This document shows positions 1-20,534 of a DNA stretch of 64,000 nucleotides, piece by piece; the stretch's first letter is position 1, and the number at the start of each line of letters is the position of its first letter. The translations under genes were made by a program, and so were the position numbers. The notes beneath the pieces were generated by a model. That model saw nothing but the letters and a program-made list of their open reading frames with translations, was not told where the DNA came from and made no database searches. The stretch lies in the IMG/VR virus record IMGVR_UViG_3300042291_000957, positions 1 through 64,000 of that record. One strand, given 5' to 3'. The DNA comes from a virus.

Positions 1-93
1 GCCACACGAAGAATACAGTCCCTACTACGGGGCTTGACACATTGAGCTTTCTTTGCTATAATAGAGACTTACTAACACACAGGAGCGAACAAA

Positions 94-1146: not shown

Positions 1147-1376
1147 TGGCAACAGACACCTTAGGGTGCCAGTGGATTGGTTCGGAGCAGACCCAGGCTC
1201 CGTTCCACTCCTGTGGTAAGAAAGTGTTCCCGGGCAAGAGCTACTGTGAAGATCACGTGTGGCTGGTCTACAAAAAGAACACTAACAAAGGCAACAAACG
1301 CAAGATCAATGAGATCGAGAAAGAGTTGGCTGAGATCAAACGTATTGAAGAAGTTGAGGAGATCATAAATGCTTAA
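1146..1376 (+). CDS. GcrA C-terminal-domain-like small protein
   Basis: CQWIG...FHSCG...GKSYCEDH..LVY resembles the GcrA C-terminal pattern C.WP.G...F.FCG...G.PYC..H...AY. Confidence 0.6.
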   Translation: MATDTLGCQWIGSEQTQAPFHSCGKKVFPGKSYCEDHVWLVYKKNTNKGNKRKINEIEKELAEIKRIEEVEEIINA

Positions 1377-1554
1377 AATTATTCTAGTCATTGCCCTAAT
1401 CATCTTCCTGTTGGCTATTGGGCCGTTCCTAGTCATTTGGAGTTGGAACGTGTTGTTTGGGACATCTTTGATGATCGCTTACAATTTGGAGACCTGGGCC
1501 GCTGTGGTTCTGTTGGGAGCCTTCCTTCGAGCTAACGTAACAGTAAAACGGTAA
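1369..1554 (+). CDS. small membrane protein
   Basis: two hydrophobic segments; overlaps upstream stop; RBS GAGGAG. Confidence 0.7.
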   Translation: MLKIILVIALIIFLLAIGPFLVIWSWNVLFGTSLMIAYNLETWAAVVLLGAFLRANVTVKR

Positions 1555-1637
1555 AACTGATCGTTGACCTTAACCGATCAAGACGCTATACTAGTTAAAC
1601 GCTGTTAGGGAACAGCCACAACAAAGGAAACTTAAAA

Positions 1638-1910
1638 ATGAAAAGATTCAATCCAGAAACAAAGACTTTCAAAGTCTTCACCGCACTGTACAATGGTCAG
1701 GCCCTGACCGCCAGTGAAGCCAAGAAGCGTTTTGGCGTAGGTAACTTGGCAGCAGAAGCCAGCCGCATCCGTCAGAGCGGTTATGCTGTTTATGCCAACA
1801 GCCGCAAAGCAGGCAACGGTGTTCAGGTCACTGAGTATGTGATGGGCAAGCCATCACGTGAGATCGTTGCTCTAGGCTACAAGGCCGCCGCAATGGGCAT
1901 CACTCTTTAA
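1638..1910 (+). CDS. putative winged-HTH DNA-binding protein
   Basis: LTASEAKKRFGVGNLAAEASRIRQSGY is HTH-like; own promoter 1564-1592. Confidence 0.6.
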   Translation: MKRFNPETKTFKVFTALYNGQALTASEAKKRFGVGNLAAEASRIRQSGYAVYANSRKAGNGVQVTEYVMGKPSREIVALGYKAAAMGITL

Positions 1911-1920
1911 TTAGGGTTTC

Positions 1921-1953
1921 AAAGACAAGCCGATTCGCTCCCGGGGCGTCTTT
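1921..1953 (+). other. hairpin with conserved CCG-ATTCGCTCC-CGG apex (copy 1)
   Basis: 15-mer 1930-1944 identical to 8831-8845; outer stem AAAGAC/GTCTTT. Confidence 0.75.
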
Positions 1954-1986
1954 GGGGTGTTGTAGAAATACAACACCCTTTCTTTT
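1954..1986 (+). terminator. Rho-independent terminator overlapping a GTGTTG-N8-CAACAC palindrome
   Basis: GGGTGTTGTA-GAAA-TACAACACCC followed by TTTCTTTT. Confidence 0.75.
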
Positions 1987-2046
1987 GGTTGACAGTTTGG
2001 ACTAAAGACAGTATAATAGATACATACAGACACAACAGGAGCCGAG

Positions 2047-2439
2047 ATGACAACATTAGAATTTAGACCCAAGTGTATCAATCATGGTTGCACTAAGCCC
2101 GTAACATATAGTCACAAAGATGAGCAAGGAAACAAACGCTGGAGAATTCATTGCGGGCATTGCCAAGGAGCCAGCTACGGACGGCACGCTCATGCTTCTG
2201 GGGTAACACCATTCAAGACTGGCTACTGCTCTAACAGTGATAGTCATTTAGGGTTTGCTTGTGCTATTAACTACAAGAAAGCTCCTTGGGCAATAGGCAT
2301 GACAGAGATAGATCACAAGAATGGTGATTGCACTGACAATCGTGTTAAGAACTTAGACGAGCTGTGCCCGATGTGCCATAAACGTAAAGGTCGACTACTC
2401 GGAGACTATAACAACATGAAACACTATCGTGTGGCGTAA
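2047..2439 (+). CDS. HNH endonuclease-domain protein
   Basis: EIDHKNGDCTDNRVKNLDELCPMCH HNH motif plus N-terminal Cys pairs. Confidence 0.8.
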   Translation: MTTLEFRPKCINHGCTKPVTYSHKDEQGNKRWRIHCGHCQGASYGRHAHASGVTPFKTGYCSNSDSHLGFACAINYKKAPWAIGMTEIDHKNGDCTDNRVKNLDELCPMCHKRKGRLLGDYNNMKHYRVA

Positions 2440-2529
2440 GAGCCACACTGCCGGCACTCCAATCCCAGGGGTTGACAGTTTGGGCAAGAGGCTATATAAT
2501 AGAGACATACAGCAACAACGGAGCGAACC

Positions 2530-3180
2530 ATGTTTACAGCAGATCAAGTTTGGGGATTAGCGGTAGCGGCAGATCGTATCAATGAGGGCTACTTCAAAGA
2601 GCCTGTGTGGACTCAACCCGACAACGATCTAACAGGTCCTATGGTTCTGGTTAAAGATGCCAACAAGTTGATGGTCAAACAATGGCTCCGCGCCAATAAC
2701 TTTACAGCAGCTTCAGAAGCTGACATCGAGAAGGGTCGTGAGATTCGTCATTACTTCAACGGCTTCTTGCTCAAAGAACTATCGGGCAAGATCAACGACT
2801 TCGAGCGACAGGCACTCCGCATCGCCCAAATAGATGAGTTCACCAACAAGAACCTCCTGGAGTTTGCTATTGTAAGCTGCTTGCCCAGCACTCAACGGCG
2901 TGATGTTGACAAGAATGTCCTGGCTGCTGAAGTTAGGAACAGCACCCAGCTGACGGGCGAAGTTGGTGACAAGATACAGGGCGAGATCGAGATCGTTAAG
3001 AGCTACTACTCACAAGAGTACAATAAATTTAGAATCACAGCTAAACTGGTTGACAGCTTCGTTGATTTCTGGTATAATACTAACATGGACACAGGAAGTA
3101 GGGTGTCTATTAAAGCAAAGATTAAAAGTGTGCGTGGCGACAATACAACACAGTTAAACTTTGTAAAGAGAATTGGTTGA
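2530..3180 (+). CDS. hypothetical protein, possible C-terminal OB-fold
   Basis: 216-aa ORF with promoter and GGAGCGAA RBS; beta-rich C-terminus ending TQLNFVK. Confidence 0.7.
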   Translation: MFTADQVWGLAVAADRINEGYFKEPVWTQPDNDLTGPMVLVKDANKLMVKQWLRANNFTAASEADIEKGREIRHYFNGFLLKELSGKINDFERQALRIAQIDEFTNKNLLEFAIVSCLPSTQRRDVDKNVLAAEVRNSTQLTGEVGDKIQGEIEIVKSYYSQEYNKFRITAKLVDSFVDFWYNTNMDTGSRVSIKAKIKSVRGDNTTQLNFVKRIG

Positions 3181-3240
3181 CACTGAGCTGAGTTGGTGTT
3201 ATACTATTAAAACTGAGAAACAACTTAAAGAGGTCTTAAA

Positions 3241-4326
3241 ATGGCAAAGAGCACAGATATTTCCGTCCGCCAAGTCGGTCCAAAAGCCGCAAAGCGTTCT
3301 ATCCGCAAGGCGATTCAAACACGCCGCCCAGTGTTCCTGTGGGGTCCCCCAGGCATTGGTAAATCCGACATTGTCAAGCAGATTGGCCAGGACGCAGGCC
3401 GTGATGTTATCGACGTTCGACTGGCTCTGTGGGAACCTACAGACATTAAAGGTATTCCTTATTACGATGCCAGCAAGGGCACAATGGTTTGGGCTCCTCC
3501 AGGTGAACTGCCTATGGATCCAGAGAGTACCGCAATCATCTTCTTGGACGAGTTGAACTCCGCTCCTCCAGCTGTTCAGGCCGCTGCCTATCAGTTGATC
3601 CTTAACCGCAAGGTTGGTACTTACCACTTGCCTAAGGGTGTTGACATTGTTGCCGCTGGTAACCGTGAAGGCGATCGTGGCGTGACATATCGTATGCCTG
3701 CTCCGCTGGCTAACCGTTTCATTCACTTGGAAGCCAAGGTAGACTTTGATGACTTCCAAGAGTGGGCTGTGATGAACAATGTGCATCCAGAGGTTGTAGG
3801 CTATGTAGGCTTTGCCAAGCAGGACCTGTACGACTTCGATCCCAAGAGCCCTTCAAAGGCCTTTGCTACTCCACGCTCGTGGGTGTTTGTAAGCGACCTG
3901 CTCTGGGAAGACGACACTGACATTGATACTCTGCACAACCTGATCGCAGGTGCCGTAGGTGATGGCTTGGCTGTGAAGTTCATGGCTCACCGCAAGATTG
4001 CAGGTCGCTTGCCTAAAGCAGAAGACATCCTTAAGGGCAAGGTCAAGGACCTGCAGATTAAGGAAGTGTCAGCGATGTATTCTTTGACTGTTAGCCTGTG
4101 CTACGAGTTGAAGGATCAAGCAGAGAAGAAGGCCAAGGACTTTGATTCTCAGGCTGATAACTTCTTCCGCTACATGATGGATAACTTCCCAACAGAGTTG
4201 GTAGTAATGGGTGCTAAGACAGGCCTGACAAACTACAACCTGCCATTGGATGCAACAAAGATGAAGAGCTTTGACGAGTTCCACAAGCGATTCGGTAAGT
4301 ATGTTTTGAGTGCAATGGAGAATTAA
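3241..4326 (+). CDS. MoxR-like AAA+ ATPase
   Basis: WGPPGIGKS, IIFLDELN, AAGN, PLANRF, TPRSW motifs. Confidence 0.9.
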   Translation: MAKSTDISVRQVGPKAAKRSIRKAIQTRRPVFLWGPPGIGKSDIVKQIGQDAGRDVIDVRLALWEPTDIKGIPYYDASKGTMVWAPPGELPMDPESTAIIFLDELNSAPPAVQAAAYQLILNRKVGTYHLPKGVDIVAAGNREGDRGVTYRMPAPLANRFIHLEAKVDFDDFQEWAVMNNVHPEVVGYVGFAKQDLYDFDPKSPSKAFATPRSWVFVSDLLWEDDTDIDTLHNLIAGAVGDGLAVKFMAHRKIAGRLPKAEDILKGKVKDLQIKEVSAMYSLTVSLCYELKDQAEKKAKDFDSQADNFFRYMMDNFPTELVVMGAKTGLTNYNLPLDATKMKSFDEFHKRFGKYVLSAMEN

Positions 4327-4473
4327 GACCTCGCCCTTGCAGGGGCGGGGAGCTTCTCAGGGCTTGCCCGCCCACCTATAGAGTGCCAGGGTGTTGCGTA
4401 AATACAACATCCTGGCCACTTGACAACTTCGTCGTTTGGTGCTATAATATATACATACTAAGGAGAGCGACAC

Positions 4474-5682
4474 ATGGACCCGATCATCGATAAACTAACT
4501 ACTGCTAGAGTAGGCCTACTGCTCAAAGCACCCTTCTTCGGCAATATGGCAACTCGTATGCAATTGATCGAAGCAGACGACTGGTGCCCGACTGCGGCTA
4601 CTAATGGTCGCAATTTCTATTACAATACCAAGTTCGTGCAGAAGCTCTCAGTCAAGAAGCTGGAGTTCCTATTCGGACACGAGATCTGCCATTGCGTGTT
4701 TGATCACTTTGGTCGTGTAGGTAGCAGAGATCGTATGCTGTCTAACATCGCACAAGACTACGCTGTCAACCAGATACTGGTAGACGAACGCATTGGTGAG
4801 AAGATTACAGAAGTTAAGATCTGCTACGATGCCAAGTACCGCGGTATGGCTTGGGAAGAGATCTACGACGAGCTCTGGGAAAAAGCAGAAAAGATCTCTT
4901 TGCCTGACCTGCTCAAGCAATTGGGCGACTTGTTGGACGAGCACATCAACGAAGATGGTTCGGGCCCAGGCAAAGAAGGTGATGGAGACAAGCAGGGCAA
5001 AGGTATGCCCACTATGACTAAAGAAGAAGCACAACAGATCCGCGATGAGATCAAAGAAGCCATGATCCAAAGTGCCGCGGCAGCAGGTGCAGGCAAGACT
5101 CCTATGGGTATCCAGCGCCTGATCAAAGATATGACTGAACCCAAGATTAGCTGGCGCGATCTTGTGCGTCAAGAGATCCAAAGCATCATCCGCAATGACT
5201 ACACATTCACTCGCCCAAGCCGTAAGGGACAGATGTCAGGTGCTATCCTGCCTGGTATGAAAGAAGCAACTACCATTGACGTAGGCATCTGCATTGATAT
5301 GTCGGGCTCCATTGGTGAAGAGGATGCAACTGTATTCCTTTCAGAAGTCAAAGGCATTATGGATCAATACGAGGACTTCAAGATCAACCTGTGGTGCTTT
5401 GATACTGCTATCTATAATCACAAAGAGATCTCGCAAGACAACAGTCACGATCTTGAAGAGTATGAGCCACAAGGTGGCGGTGGTACTGACTTTGAAGTCA
5501 ACTGGGACTTTATGAAAGATAATGGCATTGCTCCCAAGAAGTTCATTATGTTCACAGACGGCTACCCTTGCGGCAGTTGGGGCGATGAGGATTATTGCGA
5601 CACTATCTTTATTGTCAAAGGCAATACAGAAGCAGAAGCACCTTTTGGCCAGACTGTTATCTACGAGAAAGAAGCGGCATAA
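4474..5682 (+). CDS. vWA-domain metallopeptidase-like protein (DUF2201 type), MoxR partner
   Basis: HEICH (HExxH), MIDAS DMSGS, GGGGTDF, FTDG; adjacent to MoxR ATPase. Confidence 0.88.
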   Translation: MDPIIDKLTTARVGLLLKAPFFGNMATRMQLIEADDWCPTAATNGRNFYYNTKFVQKLSVKKLEFLFGHEICHCVFDHFGRVGSRDRMLSNIAQDYAVNQILVDERIGEKITEVKICYDAKYRGMAWEEIYDELWEKAEKISLPDLLKQLGDLLDEHINEDGSGPGKEGDGDKQGKGMPTMTKEEAQQIRDEIKEAMIQSAAAAGAGKTPMGIQRLIKDMTEPKISWRDLVRQEIQSIIRNDYTFTRPSRKGQMSGAILPGMKEATTIDVGICIDMSGSIGEEDATVFLSEVKGIMDQYEDFKINLWCFDTAIYNHKEISQDNSHDLEEYEPQGGGGTDFEVNWDFMKDNGIAPKKFIMFTDGYPCGSWGDEDYCDTIFIVKGNTEAEAPFGQTVIYEKEAA

Positions 5683-5837
5683 TGGAAGTGCCGGGCTGTG
5701 TGGCTTTTTAGCAACAGGCCCCGCTGCTATACGTGTACAAAGACCCTAGAACTTCTAGGGTTTCTTTTGACTTTGGTTGACGGAATCGCCAAAAGGCATT
5801 ATAATTAATGCTTACACACACTAAACAGGAGCTAGAT

Positions 5838-6191
5838 ATGCAAGCAGTCGCAACAGTTATCACAGAGCAGTTGGTACAGGACGCAACCAACGAGGCAGGC
5901 ATCCAGGCCCGCTCAGCGGCTAAGGCATTCCACGCCAAGCATGGCGATCGTGACGCTTGTGGCTTTGCCTGGGTAAACGTCTACGGTGTTCGTAGCAACT
6001 CTAAGTTGGGCAAGTGGTTGGCAGCCGCAGGCTTCCGCAAAGACTACACGGGTGCATTGTGCCTGTGGAATCCAAGCGGCTTTCCTACACAATCGATCAG
6101 CATCCTGGAAGCAGGCGCTGAGGCCTACGCAGAAGTGATCAAGACCAAGTTGGGCTTGGACAAGGTCTACGCAGGAAGCAGGTTGGATTAA
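5838..6191 (+). CDS. hypothetical protein
   Basis: promoter 5777-5805, RBS CAGGAG, ATG 5838; CGFAWV motif. Confidence 0.75.
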   Translation: MQAVATVITEQLVQDATNEAGIQARSAAKAFHAKHGDRDACGFAWVNVYGVRSNSKLGKWLAAAGFRKDYTGALCLWNPSGFPTQSISILEAGAEAYAEVIKTKLGLDKVYAGSRLD

Positions 6192-6511
6192 TGGAAGCCC
6201 TCCGGGAAACAACCGGGGGTGCCTTTCCCCCGCACATATATCTACTAGATGGAAACAATCTAGTATCGTATATAAAGAGTGGAGAATCAGAACCATTCTA
6301 TTTTAAGAATCCTATTAAAGGGTTTGATAAACGTGGTAGGAAGTTTGCAACTGTAACTCCTAATCCGTTTAAAGTCAAAGTACAAAGTAATTTAATAACA
6401 GTAAAAGGCTCCAATGACAAAGAATACACAATCGATCCAGATGCAAAAACCTGTACCTGTCCAGGGTTCACTTTCCGAGGTGCCTGCAAACACTTGGCCA
6501 GCAATAGTTAA
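6191..6511 (+). CDS. SWIM zinc-finger protein
   Basis: CTCPGFTFRGACKH = CxC-xn-CxH. Confidence 0.8.
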   Translation: MEALRETTGGAFPPHIYLLDGNNLVSYIKSGESEPFYFKNPIKGFDKRGRKFATVTPNPFKVKVQSNLITVKGSNDKEYTIDPDAKTCTCPGFTFRGACKHLASNS

Positions 6512-6529
6512 ACGACTGCTGAGTGGCAA

Positions 6530-6757
6530 ATGAAACGATTCACCTTTTGGCGTAATTCCATCATATCAGAAGTCTACGTGGTTGAGTGCGAGACTGAGGA
6601 GCAGGCCCGAACCATGCTGAACGACGGTGAAGTGGATGTATTCTCAGAGGAGTGGGTGGACTGGGCAACTAGGGACTACGAGCTAGAGCACGAAGAGATC
6701 ATAGACCCTTTGTACCGTATGGTTAAAGACTACGAATCGGTTGACAGTTTGGGCTAA
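6530..6757 (+). CDS. acidic hypothetical protein
   Basis: ORF in cassette array. Confidence 0.6.
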   Translation: MKRFTFWRNSIISEVYVVECETEEQARTMLNDGEVDVFSEEWVDWATRDYELEHEEIIDPLYRMVKDYESVDSLG

Positions 6758-6797
6758 TGGCAGTATAATAAACACATACACACAAACAGGAGCTGAA

Positions 6798-6983
6798 ATG
6801 ATCAAACTCAAAGACATCCGTGAAGGCAGCGTGGTCATCGTGCGTGGCGCATTTGGCAGTGGGCCTGAGGAGCGTGTCAAAGTAGAAGAGGTTCACGCAG
6901 ACGTAAAGAACGGCCGTCCAGGCATTGACTACGAAGGTAGCTGGGCATATCTTACCCAGGTTCAGCGTGTGGTTACCTACTGA
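6798..6983 (+). CDS. hypothetical protein
   Basis: promoter 6741-6769, RBS CAGGAG, ATG 6798. Confidence 0.7.
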   Translation: MIKLKDIREGSVVIVRGAFGSGPEERVKVEEVHADVKNGRPGIDYEGSWAYLTQVQRVVTY

Positions 6984-7043
6984 TTGGTTGACACTTTGGG
7001 CGTTTGGCAGTATAATAAACACATACACACAAAGGAGCGATAG

Positions 7044-7310
7044 ATGAAAGCATTAGAGAAGTTTTTAAAAGACAAGAATCACTGGAACTCATTCTTCAAG
7101 GGTCCCCAGTATAGCCTCAACAGTGCCAAGGACCGTCAGGCTGTGGCAGACATGATTGACTCAGCCTTGAGTCCAGAGAACTTGACCTGCGATGGCGAAC
7201 TGAGCCGTACAGAGGTCAATCGTCGATACAAAGAGTTAATGACTGCGGCCAAGCAACTCAAGAAGTTTGATCCAACAGTAACCTTTTACGAATACGAAAC
7301 GGAGATCTAA
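7044..7310 (+). CDS. hypothetical protein
   Basis: promoter 6988-7016, RBS AAGGAG; LSPENLTCDGE motif. Confidence 0.75.
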   Translation: MKALEKFLKDKNHWNSFFKGPQYSLNSAKDRQAVADMIDSALSPENLTCDGELSRTEVNRRYKELMTAAKQLKKFDPTVTFYEYETEI

Positions 7311-7311
7311 G

Positions 7312-7944
7312 ATGCCTAATTGGTGTTCAAATCATATCACAGTGCGTGGCACTGATCCTGCGGCAATCAAGCGATTAGCCGATGCATTTGACAACGGTGA
7401 GTTCTGCGGTACAGTAGTGCCTATGCCAGAAGAACTCAACATTACATCAGGCTCGTTGGGTGATCCTGTAGAACAGGCTGAACTAGAGGCCAAGAGTGCG
7501 GCCAACTTAGAGAAACATGGATTCGCTAACTGGTATGACTTCAATGTGGCCAAGTGGGGAACCAAGTGGGAGATCGGCGGCAACGGTGATGTTGCAGAGA
7601 TTGATGTGGATGGCTTGAGCTTCTCTGCACCCTTTGAAAGTGCCTGGAGCCCACCCATTGGTGTATGTGAAGCATTGGCTGAACAGGGCTTCGACGTCAC
7701 CCTTTACTACTACGAACCCGGCATGGGCTTTGTGGGCAAGTGGGAAGATGGTTTTGATGACTACTACGAATATGCAGGCGAGAACTCCAAGACTGTGAGA
7801 GCCGCTATTGGTGATGAGCTAGACGATATGTTTGGCATCAGTGAGTCAATGGCTGAATACGAAGCAGAGAATGAAGAAGAGGAAGAACTCACCGAATGGC
7901 TCAAGGATGGCATTGACAAAAAAGCTCAGTTGGTTGCATTATGA
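7312..7944 (+). CDS. DUF1281/YubB-like (ferredoxin-like fold) protein
   Basis: MPNWCSN start; WYDFNVAKWGTKWE, FESAWSPP and YYEPGMGFVG motifs. Confidence 0.75.
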   Translation: MPNWCSNHITVRGTDPAAIKRLADAFDNGEFCGTVVPMPEELNITSGSLGDPVEQAELEAKSAANLEKHGFANWYDFNVAKWGTKWEIGGNGDVAEIDVDGLSFSAPFESAWSPPIGVCEALAEQGFDVTLYYYEPGMGFVGKWEDGFDDYYEYAGENSKTVRAAIGDELDDMFGISESMAEYEAENEEEEELTEWLKDGIDKKAQLVAL

Positions 7945-8234
7945 AAGTAATCAAACTGGATCGACGTTACAGTGGCTACGGCACTTGGACACATAGGACC
8001 AATGGTGGTTATTGGCAGGGTGAAGAAGCTCGTGCCAAAGGACTAATGGACTTCTACGATATGAGATGCTATATGACGCAGATGAATGGCCCGGGTTGTT
8101 TCATACACGAAGCCTGGGCCATTAAGAAGCATGGACAGGCAGTGCCTGATTGGGCTTGGGATACGGACGGCAATGTGTTCTTTCGTGACTCAGCTTTGGT
8201 TAACTTCACTTTGGCAAAGGATAGATGGCAATGA
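7941..8234 (+). CDS. hypothetical protein
   Basis: ATGA-coupled to upstream gene. Confidence 0.6.
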   Translation: MKVIKLDRRYSGYGTWTHRTNGGYWQGEEARAKGLMDFYDMRCYMTQMNGPGCFIHEAWAIKKHGQAVPDWAWDTDGNVFFRDSALVNFTLAKDRWQ

Positions 8235-8410
8235 GTAGACTATACACGTTCGTGTTCACTGTTGAGTGTGCATCAACCGGCTCTCCAGATCTAAGTAGAG
8301 CGGAAGAAATGATACATCTGAACATGCAAGAACTGGTTTATGATGACGAGTTCATCGCGGCCCTAGATGAAAAGGAGAGCGTGACAATTCAAGTTAATTT
8401 GGTAAAATGA
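8225..8410 (+). CDS. hypothetical protein
   Basis: ORF overlapping upstream stop. Confidence 0.55.
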   Translation: MAMSRLYTFVFTVECASTGSPDLSRAEEMIHLNMQELVYDDEFIAALDEKESVTIQVNLVK

Positions 8411-8499
8411 ATGGTTGACGCCAAACCAAATTGGCGTTACAATAGTAATACGCTGCTAACACAGCTAATTTTTAACACACACAGAAAGAGATATTTAAA

Positions 8500-8829
8500 A
8501 TGGCTACAGATAAAAAATTCGCAGTCGCAGGTGCTTCAACGTTTGGTGGTGACACCAAGATCCGATTCGCTAACGATATGATGCGTACCAAGATCCTCCA
8601 GAAGAATGGTCACACTGACATTGACTTGGTTGACCTGCCCAAAGAGATGACCAAGGCTGAAATCGTTCAGCACTTGAAGAGCATCAAGTTCGGTCAAGGC
8701 AATGCCGCTATCGAAGCTGCCATTGCCTACGCAGAGAAAAAGAATCCGTCAAGTACTAAGACGGTCAAGGCCAAGACTGCTACGGTCACGGCCACAGCGA
8801 CTTCTGAATCAGAAGACGCACCGTTCTAA
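8500..8829 (+). CDS. hypothetical protein with Lys/Thr/Ala-rich tail
   Basis: own promoter 8415-8443; followed by hairpin and terminator. Confidence 0.75.
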   Translation: MATDKKFAVAGASTFGGDTKIRFANDMMRTKILQKNGHTDIDLVDLPKEMTKAEIVQHLKSIKFGQGNAAIEAAIAYAEKKNPSSTKTVKAKTATVTATATSESEDAPF

Positions 8830-8852
8830 ACCGATTCGCTCCCGGCTAAGAA
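8824..8852 (+). other. hairpin with conserved CCG-ATTCGCTCC-CGG apex (copy 2)
   Basis: 8831-8845 identical to 1930-1944; outer pairing TTCT/AGAA. Confidence 0.7.
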
Positions 8853-8859
8853 CCTTGAT

Positions 8860-8892
8860 AGAGACCCTACTAACACTAGGGTCTCTTTTTTT
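8860..8892 (+). terminator. Rho-independent terminator containing CCCT-N9-AGGG
   Basis: AGAGACCCTA...TAGGGTCTCT followed by a T run. Confidence 0.8.
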
Positions 8893-8952
8893 GGTTGACA
8901 TTTTGGACATTGTGCGTTATAATAACAGCTTACACACACAAAAGGACACACA

Positions 8953-9204
8953 ATGTTTACAAATTGCATAGCATACGCAAAGCTAGTTTACAACAAAAAA
9001 CTAAAAGCATACAAAGTACAATTTGCTTTTAACGTACACAAAAAGTTAGTAGGCACTGACTACAAATATATATTTCCTGTGCAAAGCAAATGCAACTATG
9101 TTAGTGGGGACTTACTTGCAGACAACTTGCAAAACGAGGTGCAACGCACTGTGGCATCTGCGCAACAAAGTTTGCGTACTACAAACATAGTATTTGTTGA
9201 CTAA
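8953..9204 (+). CDS. hypothetical protein (TC/CC-free island gene 1)
   Basis: promoter 8895-8923, RBS AAGGA. Confidence 0.75.
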   Translation: MFTNCIAYAKLVYNKKLKAYKVQFAFNVHKKLVGTDYKYIFPVQSKCNYVSGDLLADNLQNEVQRTVASAQQSLRTTNIVFVD

Positions 9205-9282
9205 ACTGTAGGGTTATACATAGCGCATTTGACATTTTGGACAAAGTGCGCTATAATAACAACTTAGCAACAAAGGAACACA

Positions 9283-9426
9283 ATGCAAAATACTAAAAGC
9301 AAATTAGACAGTTTAATGTTACAGTTACAAGCAGTGCTAGAACAAGCAGGACTAGACGAACACGAGCGCATACAAAATGCTTTTAATGCACTTGCAATAG
9401 AACTAGACGACACAATTATAGCATAA
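9283..9426 (+). CDS. 47-aa helical peptide (island gene 2; not in ORF track)
   Basis: promoter 9229-9257, RBS AAGGA; MQNTKSKLDSLMLQLQAVLEQAGLDEHERIQNAFNALAIELDDTIIA. Confidence 0.7.
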   Translation: MQNTKSKLDSLMLQLQAVLEQAGLDEHERIQNAFNALAIELDDTIIA

Positions 9427-9513
9427 CACTACAGCGCATAGGGTTATTGCGCACACACTTGACATTTTGGACAGTGTGTGCTATAATTAACACTTAGCAA
9501 CAAAGGAGTGTGT

Positions 9514-9735
9514 ATGCAAGTAGAAGTAGTGGACATTGAGGCGGATGGTTTTTACAAAGACGCTAATGTTAGCGGCAACTGCGTAAAGGTTACACTGCGC
9601 AAAGGCACAGAGGTTGCAAGCTGTAGGCAGATACTTATTTGGGATGAGGAGTACGCAGAGGACTGCTTTGAGGACTGGAAGGACTGCGCACTTGCAGGCG
9701 AAGAGGGATACACTTACACAGAAGGAGCGATATGA
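9514..9735 (+). CDS. acidic small protein (island gene 3)
   Basis: promoter 9459-9487, RBS AAGGAG; 17 D/E vs 6 K/R. Confidence 0.75.
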   Translation: MQVEVVDIEADGFYKDANVSGNCVKVTLRKGTEVASCRQILIWDEEYAEDCFEDWKDCALAGEEGYTYTEGAI

Positions 9736-9914
9736 AGACAGTTTTTGTAGTGCAAGCACAGGGCTTTGGAGATGACGAGGACGCTTTTGAGAACATTGCG
9801 GCGTTTAGTACACTGGCTCTGGCAGACGCACACATTGCGGAACTGCAAGCACAGGACGCAGAGGAAGACAACGAGTTTGTATACAATGTGGACGCAATAA
9901 CCCTGCAGGCCTAA
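9732..9914 (+). CDS. very acidic small protein (island gene 4)
   Basis: RBS AAGGAG, ATGA overlap; 13 D/E vs 1 K. Confidence 0.75.
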   Translation: MKTVFVVQAQGFGDDEDAFENIAAFSTLALADAHIAELQAQDAEEDNEFVYNVDAITLQA

Positions 9915-9986
9915 GGGCCTTTATATTTTGGTTGACAGATTGGCTAAAGTGCGCTATAATTAACACTTAGCAACAAAGGACGTACA

Positions 9987-10325
9987 ATGTACAAAGTTAA
10001 CGCAACACTAAACACAAACGGCAACGGCTATTGGAGCAGGACTGTAGCGGCTGTAGAGATTACACGACTGCAACTTGCGTACACTAACGACGAGTTGGAC
10101 TTTGGCGAACTGCGTGTTTATTTTAACACTGCAACTTGGGATGTAAACAAGCAGGGGCTTATATACACAGACAAGCAGTTTATGCGAGAGCTTAAAGAAC
10201 TGTTAACTAGCAAGGGCTTTGACGCTAGCGATGTAAGCTACAGCGAGCAGGGAATGCAAGGGGACAATTACGTTAGCTGTGACGTTGGCGAGCGTTTTAT
10301 TAATACGTTTATGCAACAGGCATAA
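9987..10325 (+). CDS. hypothetical protein (island gene 5)
   Basis: promoter 9932-9960, RBS AAGGA; GLIYTDKQF and YSEQGMQGDNYVSCD motifs. Confidence 0.8.
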   Translation: MYKVNATLNTNGNGYWSRTVAAVEITRLQLAYTNDELDFGELRVYFNTATWDVNKQGLIYTDKQFMRELKELLTSKGFDASDVSYSEQGMQGDNYVSCDVGERFINTFMQQA

Positions 10326-10418
10326 CAATAGGGGTGTAGGCCCCGCTGCTTAACGCCGGTTGACAGCTAGCCAAAACCCTGCTATAATACATTTACACTA
10401 ACACACTTTGGAGCCAAG

Positions 10419-10709
10419 ATGAACATCACCCAAATCAACACAGCGATCCTGCAAGGTGGCTGGACCAATGATCAACTGTCAAGTATGATCGATGCGGTCA
10501 AGTTCGCCCGAGCACGTCTCACAGAACAGACCAAACGAAACCTGCGTATCGGTGACAATGTCAACTTCAACAGCACCAAACTGGGCCAGAACGTCACCGG
10601 CGTTGTGATCAAGATTGCTATCAAGTTTGTGACTGTTAAGACAGTGTCAGGCCTGTGGCGAGTGCCGGCCAATATGCTTACAGTGATCGAAGACCGAGAA
10701 TATGCGTAA
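10419..10709 (+). CDS. hypothetical protein, SH3/KOW-like C-terminus
   Basis: promoter 10360-10388; LRIGDNVNF...TGVVIKI...WRVPANML. Confidence 0.75.
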   Translation: MNITQINTAILQGGWTNDQLSSMIDAVKFARARLTEQTKRNLRIGDNVNFNSTKLGQNVTGVVIKIAIKFVTVKTVSGLWRVPANMLTVIEDREYA

Positions 10710-10717
10710 ATAAACAT

Positions 10718-10960
10718 ATGAGCAGATTAGAATACTTTAACAGGCCCTTAGTGGCTTTTGATCCTTCCAAGAAAGAACATCGCGGTTTTTATGCAGAGTT
10801 CCTAAAGAAGGGCGGTTGGGGTCAATGTCCAGTAAGGTTCATTGTGCCCGAAGATTGTGGAGGAGACCTGATCTCAATGATTAAGAACAGTCTTATACAA
10901 TACTACATTGAACGAGAGTTTAATATCAAGGCCAGGGTAGGACGCCATTATGGAATTTGA
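10718..10960 (+). CDS. hypothetical protein
   Basis: TAAATA 10707-10712, then N5, then ATG. Confidence 0.65.
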   Translation: MSRLEYFNRPLVAFDPSKKEHRGFYAEFLKKGGWGQCPVRFIVPEDCGGDLISMIKNSLIQYYIEREFNIKARVGRHYGI

Positions 10961-11339
10961 TCTGTTGGCCTTCTTGATCGGCTGTGTGATTGGCGGCATC
11001 GTAGGTTGGCGAGTGTGTGATCGCTTTCATACCTCGCTGACCACAGACCTACTCAAGGCTGTGGGAGTTGGTGAGAGTCAGCTGAAAAAAGCCATAGAGA
11101 ATCTACAGGCCGAACTGCCGCAGGGCACTGAACCAGCACTACCTGGTGTAGAAGTTCGGGTTGAGTCTGTTGACAATCAACTGTATGTGTATCGTTTGGA
11201 CACTATGGAGTTCCTTTGCCAGGGTGCCACTAGGGATGACATCATCAACTGTTTGGCCACAAGGTTCCACAAGGATTTCAAGATTATAGTGAGTGAAGAG
11301 CACGGTGCGCAATATCTAAAACCCAACCCTACTGCCTAA
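10950..11339 (+). CDS. membrane-anchored hypothetical protein
   Basis: N-terminal hydrophobic helix. Confidence 0.7.
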   Translation: MEFDLLAFLIGCVIGGIVGWRVCDRFHTSLTTDLLKAVGVGESQLKKAIENLQAELPQGTEPALPGVEVRVESVDNQLYVYRLDTMEFLCQGATRDDIINCLATRFHKDFKIIVSEEHGAQYLKPNPTA

Positions 11340-11385
11340 AGGGGCTTTGATTGACAGTGTGTCAGAATGGTGCTATAATAAACAC

Positions 11386-11622
11386 ATGACATACAAAAAC
11401 ATAGACAACATATTGCAGTGGACAGGTGCCGTGGCCATTGTGCTGGGACACGCCTTCAACGCCATGGGACCAGTGATGTATCCTTGGAACATCATTGTGT
11501 TTGCCATAGGAACTGTGATGTTTTTGCTGTGGGCTCTGCGAGTAGGCAATCGGCCACAGCTGATGGTCAACGTGGTTTCGTTGGCCATAGGTATTTTGGG
11601 TCTTGTCAAGGCTATCAGTTGA
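11386..11622 (+). CDS. small polytopic membrane protein
   Basis: three hydrophobic segments; ATG follows TATAAT (11374-11379) after 6 nt, no RBS. Confidence 0.7.
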   Translation: MTYKNIDNILQWTGAVAIVLGHAFNAMGPVMYPWNIIVFAIGTVMFLLWALRVGNRPQLMVNVVSLAIGILGLVKAIS

Positions 11623-11656
11623 TATTTGTAAACCAAACCAGCACCAAAGGCGTTAT

Positions 11657-11878
11657 ATGATTACACTAGAAGGTTTAAGTCAGCAACAGGTACAGATCGC
11701 TGAAATGTTGTGGAAATGCAACAGTCTTGAAGATGTTGATAGGTTGGTTAGGAATATGCCGCCTACCTATCGTCAAGATGCTGTGGTTGTGAAAGAGCTG
11801 TTGATAGCCGCTGGTTTGGATGACTACCAAGAAACTGATCTAGCCGAAAGGGCTTTGGTTGACATCTTTGGGCGGTAA
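11657..11878 (+). CDS. hypothetical protein
   Basis: RBS AAGG, ATG 11657. Confidence 0.65.
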   Translation: MITLEGLSQQQVQIAEMLWKCNSLEDVDRLVRNMPPTYRQDAVVVKELLIAAGLDDYQETDLAERALVDIFGR

Positions 11879-11910
11879 TGTTACACTGTAAACACAGTAA
11901 GGAGAACGCA

Positions 11911-12264
11911 ATGAAGAAGTTTGTATTAGCAATCATGATCACGGTCAGTTCTATCGGTTCAGCACAGGCCTGGGGCGATCGCGAACAAGGCGCCCTGGCA
12001 GGCCTAATCGTAGGTGCCATCGCACACAGAGCCTTTAGCCAACCTCAGCAGACGGGCTATCCACCTGTTCAGCAAGGCTTCCCCCAGCAGATGCCTACTC
12101 AGCAGTATCCTGTCTACTCCCCACAGCCACAGATCATTGTACAGGCTCCGGACATAATCTATCAGCCACAGCCTATGCAACGGCAGTGCCATACCTTTCC
12201 ACAGTATGATGTCTACGGCCGCTTTCACGGCAACCGCACTGTGTGCCGTATGGTTCCTTACTGA
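11911..12264 (+). CDS. secreted Gln/Pro-rich protein with glycine-zipper-like segment
   Basis: signal peptide MKKFVLAIM...AQA, GALAGLIVGAI, QP-rich linker. Confidence 0.75.
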   Translation: MKKFVLAIMITVSSIGSAQAWGDREQGALAGLIVGAIAHRAFSQPQQTGYPPVQQGFPQQMPTQQYPVYSPQPQIIVQAPDIIYQPQPMQRQCHTFPQYDVYGRFHGNRTVCRMVPY

Positions 12265-12321
12265 TTGACTAGAATCACTTTTGGCGTTATAATTAACACT
12301 TAGACACACTAGGAGCGCGAT

Positions 12322-12435
12322 ATGTTAAAGCTGATTGGATTCTGCACAGTGATATGGGCCTTGTTCTACTTTGGCATTGCTCAGTTGGCAGCCATCTGGG
12401 GCATGGTGGCCTTGAGTTCTGTGGCTAGTCTGTGA
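12322..12435 (+). CDS. 37-aa membrane peptide (not in ORF track)
   Basis: promoter 12265-12293, RBS AGGAG, hydrophobic. Confidence 0.6.
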   Translation: MLKLIGFCTVIWALFYFGIAQLAAIWGMVALSSVASL

Positions 12436-12836
12436 TGCAGTATCACATAGAAGCTGGCGCTAAGACTCGCCAGTACATAGAAGCAGTCTTGCCCTCCATG
12501 CTCACACAGTTGGGACTGAACAGTAGCCGCAGACTGTTGGTCGTAAAGGTTGATCAAGATCTAGAAGAGATGGGCACCACAGTGCCGCTCACAGGTATAG
12601 ACACATTCCTGGTTGTGCTCAAGCCTACTCGCAACTGGGTGAACCTAGGAGTCACTTTGGCACACGAGTTGACTCACGTGGCGCAGTTTGCCAAAGGTCT
12701 ACTCAAACCCACAGCCAAGGGCAGGTTGTGGAAGGGCAAGCTCTACAAGAACAATCATCCTTATCTTGATCAACCCTGGGAAATACAGGCCTTTGCCAAG
12801 CAGGAAATCATATTCCGTAGGGCAATAGAGTTGTAA
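12435..12836 (+). CDS. zincin-like metallopeptidase
   Basis: LAHELTHVAQ (HExxH) and Y.DQPWEIQA. Confidence 0.8.
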   Translation: MQYHIEAGAKTRQYIEAVLPSMLTQLGLNSSRRLLVVKVDQDLEEMGTTVPLTGIDTFLVVLKPTRNWVNLGVTLAHELTHVAQFAKGLLKPTAKGRLWKGKLYKNNHPYLDQPWEIQAFAKQEIIFRRAIEL

Positions 12837-12917
12837 AAATACAACACCATTTTGGTTGACTGATTGGGCTAATGGCCGTATAATTAACACATACACACAA
12901 ACAAACAGGAACACACA

Positions 12918-13229
12918 ATGGCTAAACTGTTAATCACAACCCAGACATACGAGAACTACGGTGCCCACGATTGGGACGGTGTTGGCGAGTGCCCACAGTA
13001 CTGGAAAGCCAAGGGTGGTTCGGACTACGTGGTCAAGAACATCAACGTCAACAAGGTCACAGAGACCGTGATGGGTGTGCGTGGTCAGATCGAGTGCGAC
13101 AACTACGCTTTCCGCGAAACAATCATTGACTGGACTATCGTGGCTGACGATGCGCTCACAGAGTTTGAGCAGAGCCAGTTGGCTTACGAGGGCAAGATCC
13201 GTTATGGTTCTAAGGAGTTGGCATGGTAA
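12918..13229 (+). CDS. hypothetical protein
   Basis: promoter 12856-12884; ENYGAHDWDG...QYWKAKGG motif. Confidence 0.8.
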   Translation: MAKLLITTQTYENYGAHDWDGVGECPQYWKAKGGSDYVVKNINVNKVTETVMGVRGQIECDNYAFRETIIDWTIVADDALTEFEQSQLAYEGKIRYGSKELAW

Positions 13230-13360
13230 TTGAACAGGCTATTGTAAACCTAATCATAGTGTTTATCCCTGTAATCATTATGGGTATTGCTATCCTAGTG
13301 GTTGACGGATTGGACTAATGATCGTATAATAGATACATACAGACACAAAAGGAACACACG

Positions 13361-13444
13361 ATGACAGATACACAAATTATTGTAACAGTTCTAGTAGTAG
13401 CAGTTGTTTTTGCAGTTAAGGTATGGATTCTTACAAAGATCTAA
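13361..13444 (+). CDS. 27-aa single-TM peptide (not in ORF track)
   Basis: promoter 13302-13330, RBS AAGGA; MTDTQIIVTVLVVAVVFAVKVWILTKI. Confidence 0.6.
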   Translation: MTDTQIIVTVLVVAVVFAVKVWILTKI

Positions 13445-13514
13445 TACACTGACAGGTTAAAGGGTTATTATTTGTTTGGTTGACTGATTGGCAAATTGAA
13501 CATATAATAGATAC

Positions 13515-13838
13515 AAGAAGAAACAAAAAGCAAGGCGATCCTCAAATGTAAGAACCCAGCAGAAATGCAAGCAGGGTTGTAACTAAAGGATACGAAGCGA
13601 GTTTAGAGACTCGGTCTAAGCAGAACAGTTAGAAAAGAGTTAGAGGTTACCTACACCGTTAGGGACTGTAAAGAGAGAAGCGAAGGGGCACCTACGCAAT
13701 CTTACAGTCCAAGAAGGCAAGGCGAAAGCTGAGGTTGACGGATACGGTAGGAAGTAATGACCGGCACGGCCTGTGAGAGATGCGCTTACGGGTAGAGACA
13801 GAGAGTTGACAATGGTTCCTTTAATTCTTTTCTAACTG
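13515..13838 (+). ncRNA. putative large structured non-coding RNA
   Basis: own promoter 13480-13508, no ORF in the track; 21-bp closing helix 13626-13646/13818-13838, nested stems, three GNRA tetraloops. Confidence 0.75.
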
Positions 13839-13897
13839 GTTGACACCTAGCCCAAAAGAACATATAATAGATACATACAGACACAAAGGAGCACACA

Positions 13898-14056
13898 ATG
13901 ACTAATCAACTTACCGTAGCACAACTGATCCAACTCTTGCAAGCCATTCCTAACCAGAACGCTCGTGTAGATATGGCCATGAACCAAGAGTACCAAGATG
14001 CCGTTGAGGCTTCAGACATTAACGACTACGGCGATCTCGTTGTAATCGGCCAATAA
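13898..14056 (+). CDS. 52-aa hypothetical protein (not in ORF track)
   Basis: promoter 13840-13868, RBS AAGGAG; LTVAQLIQLLQAIP. Confidence 0.7.
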   Translation: MTNQLTVAQLIQLLQAIPNQNARVDMAMNQEYQDAVEASDINDYGDLVVIGQ

Positions 14057-14124
14057 CCCAGCGGTTGACTGGGTTATCGTTTGACAGTATAATAGACACA
14101 TACAAACACACTAGGGAACACAAA

Positions 14125-14508
14125 ATGGCCAAAGTAAATTATGACGCATTCCGCTCATTCGACATTAACGAATGCTGTGACCACTTTGACAGTGAGAAGC
14201 AGGCAAACTGGAAGAAGATTGGCAAGTTCATCGTAGCAGATGGACAAGACTACGCCCACATTATGGAGTCAGAATTCGACTTTGAAGACACAGGTGCAGG
14301 CGAGTACGAGGCCTTTGCCGCAGGCGTCAAGTATGCGCTCACAAAGATGAACATTGCATTTGAGGCAGCAGGTCTGGACTTGGAAGTTAAAGAAGCAGAT
14401 TTGGTAGAAAGCATGGGATACATGTTGGTACTTGCTGACGATGAGCCTGAGGACTTTGTGAAACGTGTTATGAAGAAGCCTGTGCTACACGTGGAAAGCT
14501 GGGTCTAA
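14125..14508 (+). CDS. acidic hypothetical protein
   Basis: promoter 14065-14093, RBS AGGGA, ATG 14125. Confidence 0.75.
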   Translation: MAKVNYDAFRSFDINECCDHFDSEKQANWKKIGKFIVADGQDYAHIMESEFDFEDTGAGEYEAFAAGVKYALTKMNIAFEAAGLDLEVKEADLVESMGYMLVLADDEPEDFVKRVMKKPVLHVESWV

Positions 14509-14745
14509 ATGGGTTGGGTAGTATACGATGAGCGCACAGGGCATATGGAGAAGTACTACAAGAAGGCTGCCACTGCCCGGCGCATAGTGACCCAGCACAA
14601 TACAGAACGCCAGTACGATGGATGGACCTATCAGCCAAGTAGGATGTGGGCCTGTTGCTCATACAGAGACTATGAAGGCATCCTACTGGGCCTCAAAGGT
14701 GAAGCACTCAAGATGTGGCAGTTTTGCAACACTCAACTTGGTTGA
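14509..14745 (+). CDS. hypothetical protein
   Basis: abuts upstream stop. Confidence 0.6.
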   Translation: MGWVVYDERTGHMEKYYKKAATARRIVTQHNTERQYDGWTYQPSRMWACCSYRDYEGILLGLKGEALKMWQFCNTQLG

Positions 14746-14800
14746 CTGATTGGCTATCCTTTGCTATAATAGACACATAGCAAGCAAAAAGGTAGCCAAA

Positions 14801-15280
14801 ATGATTAGACTGATTAGCACTGTAATTTTAGCGTTCACAGCATTCACAGCCCAGGCAGCTCAAGAACACATGGAGTTCAAGACAGCACAAGATTGCCAGG
14901 CTGTGTTTACAGGCTTCCACACACAGACCAAACAGCTGGGCTTGACACGCTATGATCACCAAGGTCAAGCCTACTTTGTCAAAGACGGTTATGTGGGCTA
15001 CTGGTCAGCTGGCAATGGCTGTGATCAAGCTGCCAAGTTGACTATGGAACCCGTGGCTGAATTCAAAGCACGATTTGCTGCCAACAACAAGGCACAGGCT
15101 GACGAAGCATTTTGCTCCAGCATGACCTGCAAGGTATTGGTAGGTACAGCGGTAGTGGTTGTACTGGCAGCGGCTCTTAAGGGTGGTGCCAATGTTGGCT
15201 GTGTTCTTCCTAGCGATCGTGCTAGTGATGGTAGCCGTTGCGGTAACCGTGCTAGTTCTGTGCGTCCAGGCGGTAAGTGA
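14801..15280 (+). CDS. secreted/membrane protein with Cys-rich C-terminus
   Basis: signal peptide ...AQA; TM segment; C..PSDRASDGSRCGNRAS. Confidence 0.7.
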   Translation: MIRLISTVILAFTAFTAQAAQEHMEFKTAQDCQAVFTGFHTQTKQLGLTRYDHQGQAYFVKDGYVGYWSAGNGCDQAAKLTMEPVAEFKARFAANNKAQADEAFCSSMTCKVLVGTAVVVVLAAALKGGANVGCVLPSDRASDGSRCGNRASSVRPGGK

Positions 15281-15339
15281 TTGGTTGACAAGTTATCCAA
15301 AAGACAGTATAATAAACACATACAAACAAAGGAGCACAT

Positions 15340-19046: not shown

Positions 19047-20534
19047 ATGAACATTGCAATTTTAGGGGGTGGAAGTGCTGGATGGATCACGGCTCTTTTG
19101 ACTCAAGCGTATCACCCATTTAATAGCATAACTGTAATTGAGAGCGAATCTATTGGAATTTTAGGAGCAGGAGAAGGCACTACTCCACAGTTTATTGATT
19201 TCCTCGATAGGGTTAATATACCCGTATCAGATCTAATTAAGAATTGCAAAGCAACAATTAAAAGTGGAATTAATTTTGAAAATTGGAATGGCGATAATAA
19301 AAAATACTTTCATTCTTTTGGACCAATTGGTCAAATATCAGAATGGAACGATATATTAATTGAAAACGCAATAATAAACAATAATCAAATTGATACCTTA
19401 AGTTTTGCAAAAAAAACTTCTAGTTTAGAAAAAGTTGGATTTTCTTTTAAAGACGTTGTTTCAGACAACAGAAATCCAATTTCAAATTTTAATTATCATT
19501 GCATATATGCTTTGCATTTTGATGCTAGATTGTTAGCACAATACTTTAGAAAAATTGCTGAGGAACGAGGAATTATTAGAGTAGAAGGAGAATTAAAATC
19601 AGTTGTAGCAGATGATTGTGGAAATATAAAACAAATACAATTGAAAAATAACAAACAAATTGACTGTGATTTTGTATTTGATTGTTCTGGGTTTGCAAGA
19701 TTATTGATTGGCAAACATTTTCAAACAGAATGGATTTCTTATAACAAACATTTACCAATGAATACAGCCTTACCATTTTTTATTGAACATGATGATAACG
19801 TATCACCTCAGACTGATGCAATTGCAATGAAGTATGGGTGGATTTGGAAAATACCAGTTCAGGGAAGATATGGTTGTGGTTACGTCTTTGATTCTAATTT
19901 TATAAATGAAGATCAAGCTCTTCAAGAAGCTGAAGAATATTTTAATGTTGAATTAAAATCTCCAAAGACATTTAAATTTGAAGCTGGAACATTTAGAGAT
20001 ACACTAGTTAAAAACTGTATGGCAGTTGGGTTATCTCAGAGTTTTATAGAACCCCTAGAAGCAACATCAATTTTTATAAGTTACTCGAATCTAACAGATT
20101 TTTTAAAGTATGATGGTTTTTCTTCTAAAACAGAATCATTTTATAAAAAATTTAACTCTATTTGTTTAGATAGGAATACTGAAGTTAGAGATTTTGTTTA
20201 CCTTCATTACATAACAAAAAGAAATGATTCAGATTTTTGGCGAAATTTTCAAAGCAACAATCCAATGATAGACACTGTTCATGAAACGTTGGAATGGATG
20301 AAAGAAACCAAAACTCTTGATGTTGATATACAGAAGAAATCTTTTTCAATTCGTGGCTGGATGCAGGTGGCAAATGGATTAGGCTTGTTTAAATACGATA
20401 CTAGAAACAGAAAAACTCATGTATTCAGTCAAGAATATATTAATTCTTATAATTCAAACTTTCTTAAAAATCAAGAAAACATGTTAAAGATTTGTATTTC
20501 CCATAAAGATTTTTTAAATTATTTAAAGCAATAA
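19047..20534 (+). CDS. flavin-dependent (tryptophan-halogenase-family) halogenase
   Basis: GGGSAG FAD motif, GAGEGT, K in CKATIK, GWIWKIP (WxWxIP), FIEPLEAT. Confidence 0.88.
   Translation: MNIAILGGGSAGWITALLTQAYHPFNSITVIESESIGILGAGEGTTPQFIDFLDRVNIPVSDLIKNCKATIKSGINFENWNGDNKKYFHSFGPIGQISEWNDILIENAIINNNQIDTLSFAKKTSSLEKVGFSFKDVVSDNRNPISNFNYHCIYALHFDARLLAQYFRKIAEERGIIRVEGELKSVVADDCGNIKQIQLKNNKQIDCDFVFDCSGFARLLIGKHFQTEWISYNKHLPMNTALPFFIEHDDNVSPQTDAIAMKYGWIWKIPVQGRYGCGYVFDSNFINEDQALQEAEEYFNVELKSPKTFKFEAGTFRDTLVKNCMAVGLSQSFIEPLEATSIFISYSNLTDFLKYDGFSSKTESFYKKFNSICLDRNTEVRDFVYLHYITKRNDSDFWRNFQSNNPMIDTVHETLEWMKETKTLDVDIQKKSFSIRGWMQVANGLGLFKYDTRNRKTHVFSQEYINSYNSNFLKNQENMLKICISHKDFLNYLKQ

Follow-up and report, generated by a model that had tools for sequence, protein, structure and literature searches.

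The locus and its promoter array

The window, by which we mean the whole 64,000-nt stretch of DNA analysed here, covers the first 64 of the 90 kb of an IMG/VR contig whose completeness is estimated at 25%. Genes for a tail sheath, a large terminase, a DnaB-like helicase, and a DNA helicase in the contig mark the source phage as a myophage; its relatives have genomes of 320 to 383 kb, and the nearest cultured one is the Pseudomonas jumbo phage PA5oct, whose TerL is 53% identical. The source is an uncultured giant lake phage. Fourteen lake-water DNA runs, each of a separate study and one perhaps the source itself, were found to contain nearly the whole stretch, and six lake metatranscriptomes contain parts of it. 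From 34 to 15316, the window holds about 25 near-consensus sigma70-type promoters, all co-oriented and each followed by between one and three small genes; promoter pattern matches totalled 27, compared to 0.8 expected by chance. Further along, a 495-aa ORF at 19047-20534 has a match (E = 2e-106) to phrog_2928, a phage family labelled "tryptophan halogenase".

One cassette of the promoter array had been singled out in a sequence-only reading as expressing a single structured non-coding RNA of about 320 nt instead of a protein. Its main features are as follows.

13480-13508, + strand: cassette promoter TTGACT-17-TATAAT (-10 box at 13503-13508), agreeing with 11 of 12 consensus positions
13509-13529, + strand: purine-rich unstructured leader from the -10 box to module A, variable among relatives while module A is constant
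13530-13621, + strand: module A, a three-way junction of about 92 nt, from a 34-sequence alignment and a match to its covariance model R2
13626-13838, + strand: module B as a whole, 213 nt with its stem, seven helices
13646-13815, + strand: core of module B, about 170 nt, suggested as the stable product by RNA contigs and supported as a structure by a match to its covariance model R1 and covariation in every helix
13840-13868, + strand: promoter of the next cassette, TTGACA-17-TATAAT, a promoter pattern match outside the RNA

The promoter is where the sequence-only reading had placed it and, judged by promoter spacing only, would start transcription near 13515. As that reading had also proposed, about 330 nt pass without a credible ORF before the 13840 promoter: no + strand ORF of at least 20 aa with a Shine-Dalgarno sequence was found after the likely transcription start in the cassette, and the sole + strand frames of at least 20 aa are a 23-aa one starting within the -35 box and one of 20 aa that starts with GTG at 13773. 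The 13840 promoter begins one base past the 3' arm of the module B stem, and we found no terminator-like site in 12800-14600, including the interval between B and this promoter. On balance, we regard the cassette as a composite non-coding transcription unit consisting of a host-type early promoter, a short leader, module A, and module B.

All of the helices that had been proposed for the RNA are found in the sequence. The arms of the 21-bp helix (13626-13646 with 13818-13838) are 90% complementary as DNA, the two mismatches becoming G-U pairs in RNA, and GGACTGTAA at 13663-71 is the exact complement of TTACAGTCC at 13702-10. Of the listed helices, the MFE fold lacks CCTAC/GTAGG and part of CCGT/ACGG, both recovered by RNAalifold on the relatives, and contains all the others. 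The three GNRA tetraloops claimed are reduced to two clear ones (GAAA at 13562-65 and GAAA at 13724-27), since GGCA is not a GNRA loop. The cassette folds with an MFE of -102 kcal/mol (z = -5.0 on the + strand versus z = -2.3 on the - strand), and each module folded alone gives a z of about -2.2; much of the score comes from the 21-bp stem, and covariation in the relatives is therefore better evidence of structure than the energy. The RNA strand is the + strand, as indicated by the promoter direction, the invariant U-G pairs, and the difference in z between the strands.

The claim that this is no tRNA, tmRNA, or other known RNA was corroborated by the Rfam search that the sequence-only reading had suggested. 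Rfam 15 covariance models, among them those for tRNA, tmRNA, RNase P, 6S, SRP, Y RNA, GOLLD, ROOL, HEARO, introns, riboswitches, and ribozymes, gave no match at the gathering score in the whole window and no match at E values of up to 10 in 13300-14000, and ARAGORN found no tRNA and no tmRNA in the window. A blastn search of 13300-14100 against 50,697 GenBank phages gave no match, and the exact 19-mer GGTTACCTACACCGTTAGG from module B is absent from 185,579 prokaryote species genomes. The covariance models of module B (R1) and module A (R2) match the window at 13642-13822 (132 bits) and 13522-13633, respectively, and also match among the related genomes G000 to G005, while neither finds anything in T4 (at E values of up to 10), PA5oct, or the Sinorhizobium phage Phosso. 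A published IMG/VR screen (PMC10690425) describes 8,495 unnamed RNA candidates of 29 to 151 nt, which may include fragments of A or B. The locus is a real, uncatalogued, two-module non-coding locus.

Modules A and B are independent conserved RNAs

We gathered 80 related loci via a neighbouring 103-aa protein, and BLAST of the region against them split the cassette into modules A and B, of which pattern scans of IMG/VR supplied many further copies. The two modules adjoin in the window's clade and several others and lie kilobases apart in L019/L160, L142/L164, L190, and L088. Each of five near-complete genomes (G000, G001, G002, G003, and G005) has exactly one R1 match, and module A occurs once in each of G000 to G002 and is missing from G003 and G005, both of which have B. 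The "5' domain" and "3' domain" of the supposed single RNA are thus separate modules, kilobases apart in many relatives, and whole genomes with the 3' module can lack the 5' one. It is improbable that A and B are nonetheless two domains of one bipartite RNA of about 320 nt: their separation, the two genomes that keep B without A, and the RNA contigs described below, where one run reaches a depth of 264 on the B core with none on A and where B contigs of two studies start at 13646 and not at A, all speak against it, even though A stands directly before B in the window and about 10 to 12 relatives, far more commonly than before other cargo, and a 70-nt RNA contig spans the junction. Our results show two conserved RNA modules that are independent of each other and are exchanged between promoter cassettes by recombination.

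Individual loci vary in their arrangement. The order in L212 is promoter, A, B, tRNA-Asp, and an exception to the single copy of B is found at L145:96-511 (- strand), where two copies stand in tandem, the upstream one having a shortened P7 with an AGG loop rather than GACGK.

The alignment of module A, which comprises 33 distinct copies and the window, gives the following helices.

13530-31 (GC) with 13620-21, and 13534-36 (GGC) with 13614-16 (GTC), + strand: A P1
13538-42 (ATCCT) with 13587-91 (AGGAT), + strand: A P2a
13553-57 (AACCC) with 13574-78 (GGGTT), + strand: A P2b
13559-68 (GCA-GAAA-TGC), + strand: A P2c
13598-603 (CGAGTT) with 13608-13 (GACTCG), + strand: A P3

The mean column identity is 85%, a figure that overstates the invariance of A because the collection pattern fixes part of its sequence and the invariance is partly by construction. 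Across the 24 pairs, 99.9% of the cells are paired, compared to 23 to 52% when partners are slid. Compensatory changes were seen in four of the pairs, one turning from AU into GC (11 sequences) and another from CG into AU (10 sequences). The tetraloop stays GNRA throughout (GAAA, GAGA, GUGA, GCGA, or GUAA). All 33 distinct copies have a promoter match just upstream of A, across the variable purine-rich leader, and the 3' boundary of the module is sharp. The internal loop contains ATG-TAA, a start followed by a stop, at 13547-13552 in 34 of 34 copies, and both loop strands read GTAA; this invariant element is probably structural, a minimal ORF being the alternative. A contact between the GAAA tetraloop and an 11-nt receptor (CCUAAG/CAAGG) inside A was considered and rejected, as the tetraloop and the receptor-like sequence vary independently.

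What follows module A differs widely: it may be one of no fewer than six unrelated small genes, the B RNA, a further promoter, or other non-coding sequence. In L015, L016, and L019, A lies directly before the Shine-Dalgarno sequence and ATG of a gene of about 98 aa, and in L014, L021, and L039, it lies directly before another promoter. This position in a 5' leader in several relatives, together with the compact and highly conserved three-way junction and its GNRA loop, is what would be expected of a riboswitch or another ligand-sensing cis-regulator of the cargo. We consider that reading unlikely, because no Rfam family matched, the cargo (at least six unrelated small genes, ncRNA, or the next promoter) forms no coherent gene set, and no expression platform was seen: there is no terminator in the window, and in six gene-linked leaders that we folded, A was autonomous in most, and the Shine-Dalgarno sequence and AUG were mostly unpaired, with no consistent sequestration. 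The mixed cargo, the lack of consistent masking, and the lack of a terminator all argue against a riboswitch. The data would fit either a free small RNA or a portable leader whose target is the transcript or the polymerase.

For module B, an alignment of 25 sequences yielded seven helices, which in the window are as follows.

13626-13646, + strand: 5' arm of B P1, 21 bp with 13818-13838, including two G-U pairs
13818-13838, + strand: 3' arm of B P1, pairing with 13626-13646
13650-54 with 13747-51, + strand: B P2, from covariation
13656-60 with 13737-41, + strand: B P3, from covariation
13663-71 with 13702-10, apical hairpin at 13680-97, + strand: B P4, from covariation
13721-30, + strand: B P5 with its GAAA loop, from covariation
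13753-59, + strand: junction AGTAATG, from the alignment
13759-62 with 13814-17 and 13763-66 with 13807-10, + strand: B P6, from covariation
13770-77 with 13785-92, loop AGATGCG, + strand: B P7, from covariation

Compensatory double changes were found in 30 of 46 pairs and affect all seven helices, 93% of the cells are paired compared to 38 to 44% with the partners slid, and none of 500 shuffles was as good. The sequence of P1 differs wholly between clades (CAGTTAGAAAAGAGTTAGAGG versus CTATATTAAAATGTATTAAAGG) with the pairing kept, and in divergent members P2 changes from CCTAC/GTAGG to ACTAG/CTAGT and P3 from CCGTT/GGCGG to CCACT/GGTGG, an invariant U-G pairing being kept in P3. The positions that do not vary are mostly in junctions (GGTTACC..., ATGAA, and AGTAATGA). 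These compensatory changes bear out the earlier claim of selection on RNA structure. The claim of a structured non-coding RNA in place of a protein is likewise supported.

The window copy aligns over its full length and has P1 to P7 together with GGTTACCTACACCGTTAGG, A(T/A)GAA, and AGTAATGA; it reads AAGAA where most members have ATGAA. About 60 of 70 members have GACGK as the apical loop of P7; the small clade of the window has AGAUGCG, which keeps GAY-G. One P6 pair is broken in the window by G13764, where the close relatives L119 and L174 have T; since an RNA contig with no mismatches (from run X15, below) also carries the G, the variant is genuine and no artefact of assembly. B is shown to be a member of an uncatalogued RNA family found in giant freshwater myophages. 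To look for pseudoknots and tertiary pairs, we applied pairwise column statistics to 75 sequences; this returned the nested helices alone, the rest being phylogenetic noise. We also considered whether the P7 loop (GACGG) might pair with the CCGUU strand of P3 and discarded the idea, because the clade with CCACU keeps GACGU.

RNA contigs and genomic context of module B

The sequence-only reading had proposed RNA-seq as a check, and this was borne out in part: B is found in lake RNA libraries, but as contigs, which do not show its strand, true ends, or level. We compared the contigs of four metatranscriptome runs with the stretch. In run X15, a 185-nt contig with a depth of 264 equals 13646-13815 with no mismatches, with Illumina adapter letters directly before 13646, and in X16, from a different study, an entire 168-nt contig equals 13646-13813. 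X20 has an RNA contig at 13664-13814, and X17 has pieces reaching 13838 and one 70-nt piece over the A/B junction (38 + 29 nt), the sole contig to span it, with 29 nt on the B side. No RNA contigs were seen on 13840-14100 in the four runs, and those on the upstream gene had depths of 3 to 10. Module A was without cover in X15; a depth on A of up to 495 in X17 was discarded as a sign of accumulation, because A is so highly conserved that the reads of many strains collapse onto it, which makes its depth unusable.

The contigs of two studies thus begin at 13646 and end at 13813-13815, ends that may partly reflect branching of the assembly graph by strain divergence. The shared ends and the adapter junction hint that B matures to a stable core of about 170 nt, from 13646 to about 13815, without the 21-bp helix, and this again departs from a single RNA of about 320 nt. 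A core without P1 would make P1 a processing stem. We also looked for a circular form of B and found no back-joint in the contigs of the four RNA runs, although contigs are poor evidence either way.

The genomic context was counted over 72 distinct B cores. A promoter lies no more than 160 nt upstream in 39 of them, and the -10 box often ends 27 nt before the core, so that P1 starts at about the transcription start. Module A is upstream in 10 cores, and the next promoter is downstream in 15. In total, P1 is at least 19 bp long in about 45 members and no more than 9 bp in about 22; beyond the 4 bp counted in the core, it adds 15 to 25 bp or at most 5 bp, respectively. The 21 bp of the window suffice for an RNase III stem, for which about 20 uninterrupted bp are needed, whereas the short stems indicate that RNase III is not a universal route. 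No gene for TROVE/Ro60, RtcB, or RNase III was found in the five near-complete relatives, and processing would therefore fall to host enzymes.

B often heads a tRNA array in the related phages. A tRNA stands directly behind P1 in 23 of the 72 cores (tRNA-Asp in 15 of the 23), and in L019 B is alone behind its own promoter and runs straight into tRNA-Asp. Found in only 23 of 72 members, adjacency to a tRNA does not define the family, and in the window, which has no tRNA, B is not at a tRNA array. The close relative G001 has an array of 29 tRNAs and a tmRNA, the array being at 58-66 kb and the A-B pair at 312 kb, so in the clade of the window B has left the tRNA operon for the early promoter array. 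In the clade with B at the tRNA array, the leader consists of a promoter, a hairpin, a boxA-like TGTTCTTTAAAAA, a GCAA hairpin, and a long P1 around B, followed by a tRNA. This leader is seen at L107:7007-7130 (- strand) and also in L105, L094, L244, L096, and L084, and its TGTTCTTTAAAAA is close to the boxA of the E. coli rrn operons. Phage tmRNAs were found at L296:4882-5318 (in G001) and L094:3059-3603; the tag in L094 is ANDEQFALAA, whose proteobacterial style suggests a freshwater proteobacterium as a likely host, and the other predicted tag is unusually long at 28 residues.

Possible roles and known systems

Novelty here lies at the level of the RNA family; the broad class of stable phage RNAs near tRNAs has precedents in T4 rnaC/rnaD, GOLLD, and ROOL. 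The T4 RNAs rnaC and rnaD are stable RNAs (species 1 and 2) of unknown function that are released by RNA processing, annotated in T4 at 139 and 119 nt within the tRNA cluster. Like the B family, they are small phage RNAs in transcription units shared with tRNAs, but there is no detectable homology, with R1 and R2 matching nothing in T4, and B is larger, has seven helices, and in the window lies outside a tRNA array in an early promoter cassette. GOLLD and ROOL are ornate, uncharacterised RNAs of 500 to 800 nt from phages and prophages, often beside tRNA genes; they share the phage and tRNA context with B but are far larger and are in Rfam, while B is 170 to 213 nt long and has no Rfam match. 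Bacterial Y RNAs (YrlA) partner Ro60/Rsr, and some are phage encoded and near tRNAs. The long stem of 5' and 3' ends that closes a structured module is common to these RNAs and B, but B matches no Rfam model, and none of the five related near-complete genomes has a TROVE/Ro60 gene.

The tRNA-array clade also resembles an rRNA operon, with the boxA-like TGTTCTTTAAAAA, a stem of up to about 28 bp, and tRNAs, and with B standing in the position of the 16S rRNA. The likeness is one of layout and probable processing alone, as B matches no rRNA model, and the window cassette differs from an rRNA operon in having no boxA and in having module A in the leader position.

As a best guess, B works in trans, as a core that is freed from a processing stem and binds a protein or tRNA. 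P1 would form a double-stranded stem that is cut by host RNase III, with trimming as in rRNA precursors, and the released core would act in trans early in infection. Its partner could be a protein or RNA from the translation or tRNA machinery of the host, contacted via the invariant junctions and the conserved P7 loop; that B acts in trans on this machinery through these elements (GACGK, or GAUG in the window) seems to us quite possible, if short of probable. Giant phages carry large sets of translation-related genes, here 25 to 30 tRNAs and a tmRNA, and the single copy, complex fold, conservation, and deep RNA contig of B, which is seen in early or rrn-like operons, suggest a role in host takeover that is exerted by the RNA itself and is absent from the catalogues.

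A more specific proposal is that B acts directly on tRNA, while A would be a portable RNA close to the promoter, conditioning either transcript or polymerase, and we hold this to be a long shot. One version has B as a trans-acting, T-box-like binder of the tRNA-Asp anticodon, in which the P7 loop would present an Asp codon followed by a purine (GAC-G, which in the window is GAU-G); tRNA-Asp is the partner proposed because it is the tRNA most often encoded right behind B. In the other version, B would be a new class of ribozyme working on phage tRNA precursors.

The broader suggestion that B or A is a ribozyme, releasing itself or processing phage tRNA precursors, has a small chance of being right. 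The conserved nucleotides of B are in junctions, in contrast to its variable peripheral helices and GNRA loops, the tandem U-G pairs of P3 are invariant, the ends of the B RNA look discrete, and B lies within tRNA transcripts. All of this would suit a catalytic RNA, but no Rfam ribozyme or RNase P model matched, the search for pseudoknots and other long-range covariation was negative, and host nucleases explain the ends of B equally well.

Module A may, and we say this with low confidence, act in cis rather than as a metabolite sensor. It would then act on the transcript that it heads, through protection, processing, or the passage of RNA polymerase. The put RNAs of HK022 are promoter-proximal, cis-acting antitermination RNAs, and they share with A the placement of a structured RNA just downstream of an early promoter, whatever the cargo. 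The fold of A is different, and it has no terminators nearby, so the analogy is one of function and not of membership. A structured leader able to move from one promoter cassette to another is unusual in itself, and the alignments, consensus structures, and covariance models of A and B make both modules testable.

It is very improbable that there is no functional RNA here and that the locus is a decayed coding cassette or a DNA-level recombination or regulatory repeat, as might be supposed from an array of repeated and clearly recombining promoter modules, given the compensatory changes in four A pairs and every one of the seven B helices, the G-U pairs that exist just in the + strand RNA, the single-copy conservation in genomes of 320 to 383 kb, and the RNA contig with a depth of 264 on the B core, compared to no RNA contig on 13840-14100.

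Some relatives may hold further ncRNAs in ORF-poor stretches that follow A or B. Examples are the GC-rich L170:6435-6540 after B and stretches after A in L195 and L209; ORF-poor stretches also follow A in L171, L197, and L207, and a "CCTCCGC..." continuation is shared downstream of A.
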